A DNA stretch of 64,000 bases from contig CAMTVO010000010.1 in NCBI GenBank assembly GCA_947085205.1, positions 1 through 64,000 of the forward strand, in the 5' to 3' direction. Positions 27,001-30,000 of the stretch are shown here, piece after piece. A program made the position numbers. Position 1 is the first letter of the stretch; the number at the start of each line of letters is the position of its first letter. Source of the stretch: an uncultured Nitrospiraceae bacterium. Lineage in GTDB: Bacteria; Nitrospirota; Thermodesulfovibrionia; Thermodesulfovibrionales; Dissulfurispiraceae.

Positions 27001-30000
27001 AGGCGCGGGCAAAAGCCTGATTGTTGCTGCACTGTGCAGGATTTTCAGGGATATGGGCATAAATGTAGCGCCTTTCAAGGCTCAGAACATGGCGCTGAAT
27101 TCTTACATAACTCCAGACGGCGGAGAGATAGGAAGGGCGCAGGCATTGCAGGCAGAGGCAGCAAAGATAGAACCTACAGTGGACATGAATCCGGTATTGC
27201 TCAAGGCATCGGGAGAGATGGGTTCGCAGGTGATTATCCACGGCAGAGTTCACTCTACCATGAAAGCAAGAGAGTATTATTCCTTTAAAAAAGAGGCATG
27301 GGAAGCTGTAAGGGCTTCTTACGACAGGCTTTCAGAAAATCATGAACTCATAATCATGGAAGGAGCCGGAAGTCCTGCTGAGATAAACCTGATGGATGTC
27401 GATATCGTAAACATGGCTGCTGCAAGATATGCAAAGGCGCCTGTAATCTTGGTCGGAGATATAGATAAAGGGGGTGTATTTGCGTCTCTTTACGGAACCG
27501 TTAAGCTCCTCGGAAAAGAGAGCAGGCACATCAAGGCATTTGTAATTAATAAATTCCGCGGCGACTTGGAGATACTCAGATCAGGACTTGAGATGATAAA
27601 GGACAAAACAGGAAAACCCGTAATAGGAGTGCTGCCCTATATAAAAGATATAGGCTTGCCTGAAGAAGATGGACTTGTCTTATGTCACGGTTCACGGTTC
27701 ACGGTTCACGGTTCACGGGGAATTAAGATTGTTGTAGTGAAGCTGAAGTATATATCTAACTTCACTGATTTTGACCCGTTCTTATGCGAGCCTGATGTGG
27801 AACTCATATATTCCCGCAATACGGCAGATATAGAAAATGCAGATATGGTAATCGTCCCGGGCTCGAAGAATACAATAAAAGATCTGCTGTTCCTAAAAGA
27901 AAACCATCTTGATGAAAGCATTAAAAAGGCATATGCAAAAGGTATAAATATTATAGGCATGTGCGGAGGATACCAGATGCTCGGCAAAAAGATATACGAC
28001 CCGCACTGTGTAGAAAGCTTACATAAAGAAATCGACGGCATCGGACTGCTGAACATAGAGACCGCATTCGAGAAAACAAAGGTAACATCACAAGTAGAAG
28101 CGGAACTGGTTGATGGCTCATGGCTCATGGCTCATGGCAATAAAAACTATCAGCTATCAGCTATCTGCTATCAGCCGCTAAGAGGCTATGAGATTCATAT
28201 GGGACAAAGCACAGGCGATATAGGACTTTTTAAAATAAAAAGAATTTCATCCGGCTCGGAACTCTCAATTCTAAACTCTAAACTCGTTTATGACGGTTCT
28301 AAAAACGGTAACTGTTGGGGGACTTACATGCATGGGATTTTTGAGAATGATTCATTCAGGAGAGGAATCATCAACAGACTGAGGAAACAGAAAGGATTAC
28401 CACCCATCGACCCATCAATCGTATATTCCGAGATTAAAGACAATGCTATCGATAACCTCGCAGATGCCGTAAGAGAAAATATAGATATGGATTTCATAAA
28501 GAGGATTGCAAAGATATGACGGACTTTATTAATACTTCACCGTTTATTCTTCATCCTTTAATCCTTGTTGCAGCACTTCTGCTTGACTTCGCCATAGGAG
28601 ACCCGAGATGGCTGCCTCATCCTGTGAGGATTATCGGAGGCGCGATAAGTAGGATAGAAAAATTTTTTAGGATATATTTTAAGACGCCTTTTCAGGAAAA
28701 ATTCGGCGGCATTTTTCTTGCTGTAATAATCGCTGTTCCCGTGTTCGGGATTGTAGTTATTATACAAAAGGCATTCTTGTCAATTGCGGTATCCTCTTAT
28801 ATCTCCACCGCTCCATTACTCCAATACTCCATGAATATCTTCGTAGTGATTTTCCTTGTATATCTCACATCAACCACAATCGCTGTAAAAGAATTAGTCA
28901 ATTCTGCAAGACTTGTAATAGAAGCCGTAAAAGATAAAGACCTCGACTCCGCAAGGAAAAATCTCGGAATGATTGTCGGACGCGATACGAAAAACCTATC
29001 AGAGAAAGGGATATTGAAGGCAACCATAGAAACCTTGGCGGAAAATCTCTCGGACGGAATCATAGCGCCGTTATTTTATCTTGCCATAGGCGGACTTCCG
29101 CTTGCCGTAACATATAAGGCGATAAACACTCTCGATTCAATGGTAGGCTACAAAAACGAAAGATACAAAAACTTCGGGTGGGCATCGGCGCGGCTTGACG
29201 ACATCGCCAATTATATCCCTGCAAGAATAACAGGTATCATTATTGTTGTAGTATCGTTCTTTGTTTCCCATTCACTGTCTACTATTCACTGTTCACTATT
29301 CACTATGTTACGCGACGGTAAAAAACATACAAGCCCGAATGCAGGTATTCCAGAAGCGGCAATGGCAGGAGCGCTCGGCGTCATGCTCGGAGGCCCTTCG
29401 ACGTATGGAGACGTTATTGTAGAGAAACCTCATATTGGAAAAAATATCGAAAAAGACTATCTAAAGGCATCAGAAAATACGACATTGATTGTAAAAATTG
29501 CCTCATTTCTCAGTATCGGAATTGCTGCAATCATTTTATACATAAGGGGACTTCCATGAAATATTTAGAGCCTCACGGCGGCAACATATATAGGACAGCA
29601 GAAAGATTGGGAATAGCTGAAAACAACATAATAGACTTCAGCGCATCCATAAATCCCCTCGGAGTTCCTAAAAGCGTTGAGTCAGCCATAAAAAACGATA
29701 GCAGATATCTTTATAATTATCCAGACCCTGATGCAACACAACTCAGACTACAGATTGCAAAATACCATAATATCAAGCCTGAATCCATCATATGTGGCAA
29801 CGGTAGCACGGAATTGATATATCTTGTTGCAAAAGCTTTAAGACCAAAGAGGACTTTAATGCCTGCGCCCACATTTTCTGAATACGAAAGGGCGTGCAGA
29901 ATGAGTTATGAGGTAAGAGTTATGAGTTATAAGTTAAAAAAAGAAAACAATTTTGATATAAATCCTGATGAATTTATATCGGCTATAAACCGGAATCTAC

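Follow-up and report, generated by a model that had tools for sequence, protein, structure and literature searches.

Heptanucleotide simple sequence repeats (SSRs) are over-represented in bacterial genomes according to a 2007 survey, and polymerase slippage has been proposed as their source, as summarized in passages of PMC4692102 and PMC4679880. TAACTGA direct repeats are described in Beggiatoaceae, some cyanobacteria and Bacteroidetes in the sections of PMC4679880 that deal with them, and three tandemly repetitive heptanucleotides are mentioned for Calothrix PCC7601 in a passage of PMC4692102. For Geobacter metallireducens, PMC2700814 lists elements in which the heptanucleotide GGACCGG is repeated four times (49 copies, both in genes and between them), as well as sites with five MTYCTGA repeats. 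In neuO of the E. coli K1 phage CUS-3, a heptanucleotide VNTR (AAGACTC) has 3-53 repeats, and 42 of 64 genomes are in the OFF state, as stated in a passage of PMC13001214.

Here we analyze period-7 arrays of many different units in the genome of an uncultured Nitrospirota bacterium; two thirds of these arrays are located inside ORFs, among them those of conserved housekeeping genes. It should be noted that one would expect essential genes to be purged of non-triplet microsatellites.

Materials and Methods

The genome under study (G000) is a draft assembly in 65 contigs (1,885,442 bp, GC 43.3%); the window is the whole 64-kb stretch of this genome that was analyzed at close range. Arrays were called genome-wide using TRF with a score of at least 34, and a codon-shuffled G000 served as control. 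The main comparison was made to a relative from a different genus with a complete, single-contig genome (G008, GC 38.7%), which shares 1289 reciprocal best hits with G000 at a median identity of 79.8%. A 366-kb contig of another relative with the same GC content as G000 (G020, 43.3%) was used as well.

Results

TRF detected 408 arrays of period 7 in G000, compared to 28 of period 6 and 119 of period 8, exactly as given in the preliminary description of this DNA; only 4 period-7 arrays were detected in the codon-shuffled genome. Perfect arrays of at least 3.5 copies were found 66 times for period 7, 8 times for period 8, and never for periods 4-6 and 9-15, and there are 70 perfect period-7 runs of at least 24 nt in the real genome versus 0 in the shuffled one. 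As in long SSRs, for which a unit of 5-11 nt and ~3 copies or more are required, both the TRF calls and the perfect runs are head-to-tail tandem copies of one unit, in excess over chance and over neighboring periods, with octanucleotide (period-8) arrays as less frequent companions. The mean copy number is 4.2 and the maximum is 8.3, with a ceiling near 5 copies (~35 nt) both in genes and in spacers; nearly all arrays are 41 nt or shorter. The G020 contig contains 11 period-7 arrays, approximately 7 times fewer than the ~79 that correspond to the density of G000.

After merging, 402 arrays remained: 269 inside ORF-based gene calls (in-gene arrays are, by construction, those inside open ORFs), 49 across a gene end and 84 intergenic, in good agreement with the 266, 48 and 88 counted earlier. 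At least one in-gene array is present in 187 genes (185 genes hit in the earlier count), and hypF does contain the nine arrays attributed to it (C43:27926-30508). In the window there are 13 array-bearing genes, and a Pfam family was assigned to 12 of them, including aroA, a nadB-like gene, rsmE, cobU, cbiB, cbiC/X, cbiG and smc (Table 1). The latter gene, cited before as an example, has both of its arrays inside the coding region; the orthologous site of the longer one is likewise period-7, and of equal length, in G008.

Table 1. Positions of the cobQ gene, its arrays and further heptanucleotide arrays in the window
Feature	Coordinates	Strand	Evidence
(TCAAGGG)x3.9 on the sense strand of aroA (EPSP synthase, 1887-3218)	2993..3019	-	TRF, Pfam
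Inverted pair (CGTAATG)5 + (CATTACG)4, intergenic or gene-end; example of the non-coding members of the array family	5189..5274	.	TRF
cobQ (cobyric acid synthase), 517 aa, host of four arrays	26966..28519	+	ORF, Pfam
cobQ array (TCACGGT)x4.9, perfect; residues ~240-251, CbiA-GATase domain linker	27685..27718	+	
cobQ array (ATGGCTC)x3.7, perfect; residues ~383-391	28113..28138	+	
cobQ array (CTATCAG)x4.1, one mismatch; residues ~394-404	28147..28175	+	
cobQ array (AACTCTA)x3.7, imperfect, 84% matches; residues ~432-440	28260..28285	+	
(ATTCACT)x5.3 in cbiB/cobD (28516-29559)	29270..29306	+	TRF, Pfam
(ATGAGTT)x5.1 in aminotransferase gene (29556-30668)	29901..29936	+	TRF, Pfam
(ACAGAAG)x4.9 in cbiX-cbiC (32098-33135); second array 32899-32915	32751..32784	+	TRF, Pfam
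(AGCGGTC)x4.3 in cbiG/precorrin methylase (34982-36868)	35991..36020	+	TRF, Pfam
(GAAGTCA)x5.9 in smc (50184-53759); second array 52122-52151	51939..51979	+	TRF, Pfam

The cobQ product matches the Pfam families GATase_3 (6.2e-52) and CbiA (3.3e-20), and orthologues are present in 35 of 41 relatives. Its four arrays were seen by direct inspection where they had been reported, in agreement with TRF, all inside one ORF. The AlphaFold2 model of CobQ has only three segments with pLDDT <50 (residues 234-249, 390-401 and 430-437), and these belong to the three loops in which the four arrays are found: the TCACGGT array is within the first segment, the ATGGCTC array adjoins the second and the CTATCAG array is within it, and the AACTCTA array is within the third. 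Relatives were said to carry different units at the same loop, and we observed this in the loop after the EEDGL motif, where the unit is TCACGGT in loci L001 and L002, TCAAATT in L004, L005 and L007, and TCAGAAG in L014, with decayed copies elsewhere. The array of L002 is identical and in the equivalent place, despite identity at just 93 of 185 third codon positions. At the ATGGCTC site, L015 has a single-copy seed, GAC AGC TCA TGG (DSSW), the unit being amplified in L001, L002 and L012. Related arrays occupy the CTATCAG site in L002, L008 and L012. In the AACTCTA loop, L002 has a period-8 array (CCAATACT), and different units are present in L004, L005, L009 and L010.

The preliminary description placed two thirds of the arrays inside genes. 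This fraction holds (67% are in ORFs, in frame, in conserved housekeeping genes); however, it does not represent an enrichment, the coding density being ~90%. Arrays are in fact depleted in coding DNA and approximately twofold enriched in spacers, which contain 84 of 402 arrays compared to ~10% of bases; in G008, 85 of 303 arrays are intergenic. Within genes, arrays accumulate at N-termini, the first decile of the ORF containing 59 of 269, and 193 of the 269 have at least 90 nt of ORF on either side; 34 arrays overlap stop codons. Hydrophobic peptides (mean KD >1) are encoded by 5.1% of internal arrays versus 19.5% of random stop-free genic heptamers, Ser (18%) and Gln (9%) being abundant in the peptides of internal arrays, and 39% of N-terminal arrays are hydrophobic. 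A preference of perfect arrays for genes, apparent in G000 (27% of arrays perfect in genes vs. 9.5% in spacers), was not reproduced in G008 (16% vs. 18%).

The 400 arrays with a TRF consensus of 7 nt (2 arrays with a consensus of other length are left out) correspond to 129 consensus units after rotation and strand normalization. The strand rule noted earlier, i.e., stop triplets on the antisense strand of in-gene units, was confirmed: there are stop triplets on the antisense strand in 200 of 269 units and on the sense strand in 56, and TCA is present in 131 sense units, TGA in 13. However, avoidance of stops alone is insufficient as its explanation, because, of the 213 sense units without a stop, 128 (60%) contain TCA, versus 15% of random stop-free genic heptamers. 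Intergenic units contain stop triplets in 77 of 83 cases compared to 60% expected, and TGA/TCA in 44 of 83 compared to 24.5% expected (2.2 times over chance). Some units are used repeatedly (TCAGCAG at 22 and TCAAGGG at 11 in-gene loci of G000), the dominant units of G008 are TCAGCCT (13) and TCAGAAG (8), and similar units come back in distant families of the phylum. Among 89 pairs of neighboring arrays genome-wide, 24 are inverted and 0 direct. The predicted single-stranded folding energy (MFE) of five tandem copies of a unit did not differ from that of random heptamers (Mann-Whitney p = 0.57); therefore, hairpin-stabilized slippage does not account for the unit vocabulary.

Comparison of orthologous sites between genera revealed a feature overlooked in the preliminary description, namely that half of the sites are periodic in another genus as well, in the same register and with unit-wide concerted substitutions. 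The fraction of sites above the 99th percentile of the null model in G008, i.e., also period-7, is 100/204, and even G008 segments that contain no clean array have a lag-7 match of 0.471, compared to 0.258 in controls. The 30 periodic pairs of equal length reach an identity of 0.63 at shift 0, compared to 0.21-0.29 at shifts of 1-6, indicating that the register is shared. Identical units were found at 6 of 100 orthologous periodic sites, and units at orthologous sites are nearer to each other than random pairs (2.57 vs. 3.44 mismatches). Concerted unit differences between G000 and G008 affect 29 unit positions in 15 of 25 pairs, whereas the independent-decay null model yielded 2.7 on average and never more than 9 (2000 runs). 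Two units of G000 have a recurrent counterpart in G008, each at 3 of 6 sites: TCAAA[AT][TC] for TCACGGT, and ACAGAAG for TCAGGAG; a one-to-one translation of units across the two genomes was rejected, since the mapping is mostly many-to-many.

Array sites are indel-variable: compared to G020, their length is equal in 3 of 39 cases, versus 621 of 679 control windows. Net length differences to G008 (232 sites) are broad, with 0 as the commonest value, and the cobQ loop after EEDGL has ~15 aa whether an array is present or absent; the earlier statement that each array adds a loop of 9-13 residues is not upheld as a general rule by these comparisons. Nor does a quantized insertion of three units (7 aa) apply generally, given the broad differences at the 39 sites in G020 and the 232 sites in G008, without any excess of multiples of 7 aa. 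Because just 3 of the 71 non-zero differences between periodic pairs of G000 and G008 are multiples of 7 aa, the genera do not differ simply by units gained or lost three at a time. Growth of arrays from a local seed, proposed before, appears to apply to a minority of sites: a seed of at least 7 nt is present at 11 of 132 non-periodic orthologous sites compared to 2.7 expected, the DSSW site of cobQ (its second array) being a clear case.

The arrays are patchily distributed among relatives and across the phylum, in which they were detected in 172 of 251 genomes; at the family level, the counts are 0/12 (f18), 0/7 (f19), 55/60 (f20) and 38/39 (f24). Loss of repair genes was rejected as the cause, with mutS1 in 40 and recJ in 39 of 41 genomes; xseA (19 of 41) is not associated with array density either (6 of 16 array-rich versus 10 of 21 array-poor genomes). 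An origin of the lagging-strand or primase type was likewise rejected: in G008, 128 of 196 arrays are in replication-co-oriented genes, compared to 1549 of 2234 for all genes. The intergenic TGA orientation in this genome, which has a clear GC-skew origin and terminus, is 22 to 15, whereas the same test is confounded in G000 by a GC skew that tracks gene strand. Logan contigs of four runs aligned to positions 20001-40000 of the window were short, broken at arrays and joined different array loci, and contained no clean case of a copy-number variant at an array. A metagenome scan for CobQ yielded 80 loci with a best identity of 75%, none of them at the strain level.

Discussion

The best explanation of these results is, in our opinion, a lineage-specific heptamer microsatellite process that is filtered by selection, with homogenization of copies inside length-constrained loop slots; we estimate its probability at slightly above one half (~0.55). 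Slippage or conversion would be the molecular process and selection the filter. A strand-symmetric, lineage-specific repeat-forming process, most likely slipped-strand misalignment together with conversion between adjacent copies at replication or repair, would produce the arrays and keep them homogeneous. Arrays would arise everywhere, and purifying selection would determine which of them are observed. The survivors in genes would be those that keep the frame, have no stop in the three sense-strand frames, encode a polar flexible peptide, and are located in disordered surface loops, linkers or N-termini, while the remaining ones would terminate ORFs or occupy spacers. In-gene arrays would need stop-free sense frames, hence TCA on the sense and TGA on the antisense strand. 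A period-7 loop may be regarded as a long-lived slot, the length of which is fixed by selection and the copies of which are repeatedly homogenized; the unit would therefore change in all copies together and differ between genera.

Several observations argue against this explanation. The TCA excess beyond stop avoidance, the recurrence of units at many loci, and the similarity of units in distant families are not predicted by plain slippage. The copy-number ceiling applies in spacers too, the patchiness at equal GC is not explained by mutS1, recJ or xseA, and intermediates that break the reading frame of an essential gene would be lethal.

Alternatively, the arrays may form a dispersed interacting family. 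Permissive slots would then be overwritten from a genome-wide pool of units, either by a lineage-specific activity dedicated to this task or by ectopic gene conversion among array loci, and the favorite units of whole genomes would shift together. Arrays of 28-35 bp are close to the minimal length for homologous pairing. Dominant units particular to each genome at unrelated loci, the parallel switches of TCACGGT and TCAGGAG between G000 and G008, the rewriting of units with length preserved, the length ceiling common to genes and spacers, and the all-or-none presence by family with mismatch repair in place are all consistent with such a family. However, the 23 TCAGCAG and 11 TCAAGGG arrays have no conserved flanks or fixed ends, the many-to-many unit mapping fits poorly, no candidate enzyme was identified, and the parallel changes are all GC to AT, as fits the lower GC content of G008, so that they could be independent; we consider this explanation unlikely. 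We are more doubtful still that the arrays are functional elements selected as such, e.g., period-7 sites at which an oligomeric protein binds RNA or DNA, arms of gene-end hairpins, or stop blocks in all frames, with in-gene copies tolerated or co-opted. The excess of stop triplets and TGA/TCA in intergenic units, the consistently inverted orientation of related neighbors, the perfect cobQ array identical in two genera despite 50% third-codon divergence, and the vocabulary common to the phylum point in this direction, and a regulatory role was suggested for the Beggiatoaceae TAACTGA repeats in a passage of PMC4679880. Nevertheless, the specific sequence is not conserved, as most orthologous sites have different units; arrays are absent from whole families and from close relatives that possess the same genes, in-gene arrays occupy the least constrained loops, and no cognate protein is known. 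An assembly or binning artefact might be suspected from the draft state of the metagenome-assembled genome and from unitigs of public runs that break at arrays and join array loci; this suspicion is effectively refuted by arrays shorter than reads, by long ORFs that stay open through them, by arrays at orthologous sites of the complete G008 and in most genomes of the phylum, and by contigs of four other runs that match array-bearing stretches.

A bolder hypothesis, which we put forward as a rather improbable one, is that an active heritable process in array-rich Nitrospirota may rewrite fixed-length loop slots of essential proteins with period-7 sequence from a genome-wide unit pool, by a dedicated enzyme or by frequent conversion between dispersed arrays, possibly tolerated via multiple genome copies. 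If this is true, these bacteria would possess a built-in, frameshift-free generator of loop, linker and signal-peptide sequence.

Arrays represent a sizeable share of loop sequence in ~190 ordinary proteins of a 1.9-Mb genome, and the same loop positions remain period-7 between genera while the sequence is rewritten in concert. Identification of the process would account for the long-noted heptamer excess in bacteria and would reveal how protein loops, linkers and N-terminal signals originate and turn over; array-rich and array-free sister lineages with equal GC and intact mismatch repair would provide a genomic marker toward the responsible gene. For annotation and alignment, the array loops are likely to be hypervariable due to mutation, not adaptation.

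Comparison with Known Systems

Our literature search, in which subscription journals were thinly covered, retrieved no report of genome-wide in-frame heptamer arrays in Nitrospirota housekeeping genes or of conserved loop slots, which does not prove that they are unpublished. In-frame mobile palindromic elements of the Rickettsia RPE or MITE type were considered and rejected: arrays of the same unit differ in start and end phase, their flanks are unrelated, and the periodic content is the unit alone.

The TAACTGA repeats, as described in the relevant sections of PMC4679880, have stops on one strand: repeats in forward orientation terminate ORFs, and those in reverse can be translated; a few sets are in ORFs, and the phylogenetic distribution is patchy. 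The same strand property is evident in the in-gene arrays analyzed here, with stops in 200 of 269 units on the antisense and in 56 on the sense strand. However, the TAACTGA repeats are of one unit, mostly intergenic just upstream of start codons, with reverse repeats in 11 ORFs, mostly at protein ends, whereas the present arrays have many units and are mostly inside ORFs; no rotation of TAACTGA or of its complement is among the 30 commonest of the 129 canonical units. In Geobacter metallireducens, one unit ends in CTGA, and the one or two fixed units are read as regulatory; frame, loops and orthologous sites are not analyzed in the passages of PMC2700814 on these elements.

The neuO VNTR resembles the present arrays in being a translated 7-nt repeat that is in frame only at a fitting number of units, its mechanism being strand slippage, but the locus treated in those passages of PMC13001214 is a single ON/OFF contingency locus, and the arrays here are short and located in essential genes, those counted as in-gene being within open ORFs by construction. 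Cyanobacterial STRR share with them several 7-nt units per genome and short tandem arrays at hundreds of loci; however, STRR are described as intergenic, and the descriptions consulted mention no behavior as coding slots. STRR have few fixed units and belong to heterocystous cyanobacteria, unlike the many, mostly coding units of G000. Long heptanucleotide SSRs, as characterized in the passages cited above, are similar in their head-to-tail 7-nt tandems and in the genome-wide excess of period 7 over neighboring periods; the arrays of this genome differ from them in that hundreds of non-triplet arrays are read in frame inside housekeeping genes, that over 100 units are represented at ~4-5 copies, and that the loop slots they occupy persist between genera.

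Excess and location of period-7 arrays

We analyzed the whole genome (G000; 1,885,442 bp in 65 contigs, GC 43.3%) with TRF at a cut-off score of at least 34, and the rerun returned exactly the counts of the preliminary description: 408 period-7, 28 period-6, and 119 period-8 arrays. Perfect arrays of at least 3.5 copies numbered 66 for period 7, 8 for period 8, and 0 for periods 4-6 and 9-15. The control genome, in which codons were shuffled within genes and bases within spacers, yielded 4 period-7 arrays in TRF and no perfect period-7 runs of at least 24 nt, compared to 70 such runs in the real genome; a 366-kb contig of a relative of equal GC content (G020) carried 11 period-7 arrays. 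The excess of period 7 is real, and composition is not its cause. Period-8 arrays form a smaller class alongside and behave like the heptamers, with about four copies per array and 67 of the 119 arrays in genes, 14 of these 67 with TCA on the sense strand.

Relative to our crude gene calls (1776 genes, called from ORFs by a log-odds score of codon usage; coding density 0.897), 402 merged period-7 arrays were divided into 269 wholly genic, 49 across a gene end (34 at the 3' end, 15 at the 5' end), and 84 intergenic, close to the 266/48/88 reported earlier. Relative to the 90% coding density, the arrays are thus depleted in genes and approximately twofold enriched in spacers. The corresponding split of 303 arrays in G008, a relative with coding density 0.894, was 196/22/85. 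Genic arrays are concentrated N-terminally (59/269 in the first decile), but in 193/269 the ORF extends for at least 90 nt on both sides of the array. Arrays occur in 187 genes, including hypF, where we counted the nine already described, and mutS (C6:21873-24464). In the window, 12 of 13 array-bearing genes match Pfam families, e.g., aroA, a nadB-like flavoprotein, rsmE, cobU, cbiB, cbiC/X, cbiG, and smc. Four clustered tRNA genes (57530-57942, +) are directly followed by heptamer arrays at 57942-57973 and 57984-58016.

Units and orientation

Two arrays were dropped; the other 400 have a 7-nt consensus and, after normalization for rotation and strand, comprise 129 units. Stop triplets occur antisense in 200 of the 269 genic units and on the sense strand in 56; 131 units have TCA on the sense strand, and 13 have TGA there. 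Since translation passes through a 7-nt unit in each of the three frames, avoidance of stops is to be expected; the strand bias, however, is larger than this can account for. Among stop-free sense units, TCA is present in 128/213 (60%), compared to 15% of random stop-free genic heptamers, and any antisense stop in 160/213, compared to 27%. Intergenic units are enriched for stops (77/83 versus 60% expected) and for TGA/TCA (44/83 versus 24.5% expected).

The most recurrent sense units are TCAGCAG (22 loci), TCAAGGG (11), TCAGAAG (9), and TCAGGAG (9); the ranking differs in G008 (TCAGCCT, 13; TCAGAAG, 8), and the enriched 4-mers of the two genomes are not alike. Because arrays sharing a unit start at different phases and their flanks are unrelated, they do not represent copies of some larger element.

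CobQ loops and the protein-level filter

All four cobQ arrays used as the example in the preliminary description were found at their positions inside one ORF (see the table below).

Features of cobQ and a period-8 array in the window
Feature	Position	Strand	Remarks
cobQ ORF	26966-28519	+	517 aa; GATase_3 6.2e-52, CbiA 3.3e-20
(TCACGGT)x4.9 in cobQ	27685-27718	+	residues ~240-251
(ATGGCTC)x3.7 in cobQ	28113-28138	+	loop residues ~383-404, with the (CTATCAG) array
(CTATCAG)x4.1 in cobQ	28147-28175	+	loop residues ~383-404, with the (ATGGCTC) array
(AACTCTA)x3.7 in cobQ, imperfect	28260-28285	+	residues ~432-440
Period-8 tandem repeat (TTCTCCAT)x4.6	46408-46444		within 46355-46444

CobQ was modeled with AlphaFold2 from 29 orthologues (mean pLDDT 84, pTM 0.86). 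In the model, pLDDT falls below 50 in only three segments (234-249, 390-401, and 430-437), located in the three loops carrying the four arrays. All three loops are hypervariable in the cobQ orthologues of 30 relatives, many of which have arrays of other units there (TCAAATT, TCAGAAG, decayed TCAAGGG, GAGTT-type, and the period-8 ATTCACCG). After EEDGL, orthologues with and without an array have a loop of about 15 aa, which is some 7 or 14 aa longer in a few relatives. An identical (TCACGGT)x4.9 array is found in two cobQ loci (L001 and L002), with agreement at only 93/185 comparable third codon positions. Genome-wide, internal arrays encode a hydrophobic peptide in 5.1% of cases, compared to 19.5% for random stop-free heptamers, with Ser and Gln abundant in their peptides; of the arrays located in the first 45 residues, 39% are hydrophobic.

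Upstream of the cob operon, a cobalamin riboswitch (RF00174, 90 bits; 23236-23479, +) spans 244 nt versus a 189-position model and contains a period-9/18 tandem array (23359-23403); contigs from other runs skip 103-116 nt there.

Array sites in relatives

G008 is a complete single-contig genome (2,370,875 bp, GC 38.7%, 307 period-7 arrays) with 1289 reciprocal best hits to G000 (median identity 79.8%). Reciprocal-best-hit genes hold 252 genic arrays; 20 at gene ends were skipped and 232 compared. Only 17 orthologous G008 sites have a perfect period-7 run of at least 17 nt. In the remaining 215 segments, the lag-7 match is 0.471, compared to 0.258 in random coding segments, and among the 204 sites of at least 28 nt, 100 lie above the null's 99th percentile. 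At these 100 sites, units differ by 2.57 mismatches (3.44 in random pairs), only six having identical units; G000 is equal in length at 29, shorter at 37, and longer at 34, and only three non-zero length differences are multiples of 7 aa. Lengths are equal at 41 sites, 30 of them periodic in G008, and nucleotide identity in these 30 pairs is 0.63 when they are in register but 0.21-0.29 when they are offset by 1-6.

We defined a concerted difference as one base in at least 75% of G000 copies and another in at least 75% of G008 copies. In the 25 of these 30 pairs with at least three copies, we found 29 such unit positions, in 15 pairs, compared to 2.7 expected under independent decay (maximum 9 in 2000 simulations). 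Of the other 132 sites, which are non-periodic or short, 87 are longer in G000 (median +4 aa), and 11 contain a seed of at least 7 nt that matches the unit of G000 (2.7 expected). In the comparison with array-poor G020, 3/39 array sites are of equal length versus 621/679 control windows; this leaves out 16 arrays that fall outside the aligned part. Together, these comparisons indicate that array sites are indel-prone loops, that approximately half are old period-7 slots common to both genera, and that the unit within a slot changes in concert.

As a proxy, we used a pattern of four TCA triplets at 7-nt intervals; 31/41 relatives matched, and counts ranged from 0 to about 115. The reversed pattern (ACT every 7 nt) is no true control, because it is array-borne itself. 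Across the phylum Nitrospirota, 172/251 genomes matched: families f20 (55/60), f24 (38/39), and f23 (11/11) are rich, f18 (0/12) and f19 (0/7) are empty, and f25 has one or two matches in each of 5/28 genomes. Distant families have similar units (TCAAGGG, TCAGAAG, TCACTGT/TCACTAT, and TCAAATT).

Constraints on the mechanism

We give slightly better than even odds (about 0.55) to a lineage-specific heptamer microsatellite process that would generate arrays, combined with selection that would filter them, so that loop slots may persist for long times under a length constraint, their units probably being homogenized in concert. The preliminary description is confirmed in its observation of heptamer arrays, by TRF, the shuffled genome, and the cobQ coordinates; its interpretation is supported in part only. 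Copy numbers span a narrow range (mean 4.2, maximum 8.3), in genes as in spacers, and the length of perfect genic runs has a plateau at 26-34 nt and then drops.

A cross-locus or enzyme-driven process behind the arrays appears unlikely to us. It would be compatible with the unit switches repeated across loci, G000 TCACGGT to G008 TCAAA[AT][TC] and G000 TCAGGAG to G008 ACAGAAG, each at 3/6 sites; these parallel switches could reflect either AT pressure or cross-locus conversion. Among relatives, neither mutS1 (40/41) nor recJ (39/41) tracks with arrays, and the same is true of xseA (6/16 array-rich versus 10/21 array-poor genomes). Single-stranded folding of five-unit arrays is no stronger than that of random heptamers. 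The cumulative GC skew of G008 is clear (minimum near 2.26 Mb, maximum near 1.16 Mb), and we found no replication-strand bias of its genic or intergenic arrays: 128/196 lie in co-oriented genes versus 1549/2234 of all genes, and intergenic TGA orientation is 22 to 15.

Neighboring pairs with related units are always inverted (24/89 pairs; none direct); one example, (CGTAATG)5 and (CATTACG)4, lies at 5189-5274, and such pairs could form gene-end hairpins. In 13 relatives, the match to the recJ model breaks in two around model position 147-150; this points to a variable loop inserted at that position.

Comparison with known systems

In the literature searched, we found no account of arrays that occur genome-wide, in frame, in housekeeping genes and at conserved slots. 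The passages on the TAACTGA repeats of Beggiatoaceae in PMC4679880 describe a forward orientation that terminates ORFs and a translatable reverse orientation, found in 11 ORFs, mostly at protein ends. For G. metallireducens, 49 four-repeat GGACCGG elements are described both inside and between genes (PMC2700814). An experimentally studied translated heptanucleotide VNTR is neuO, described as a phase-variable locus with 3-53 repeats (PMC13001214).
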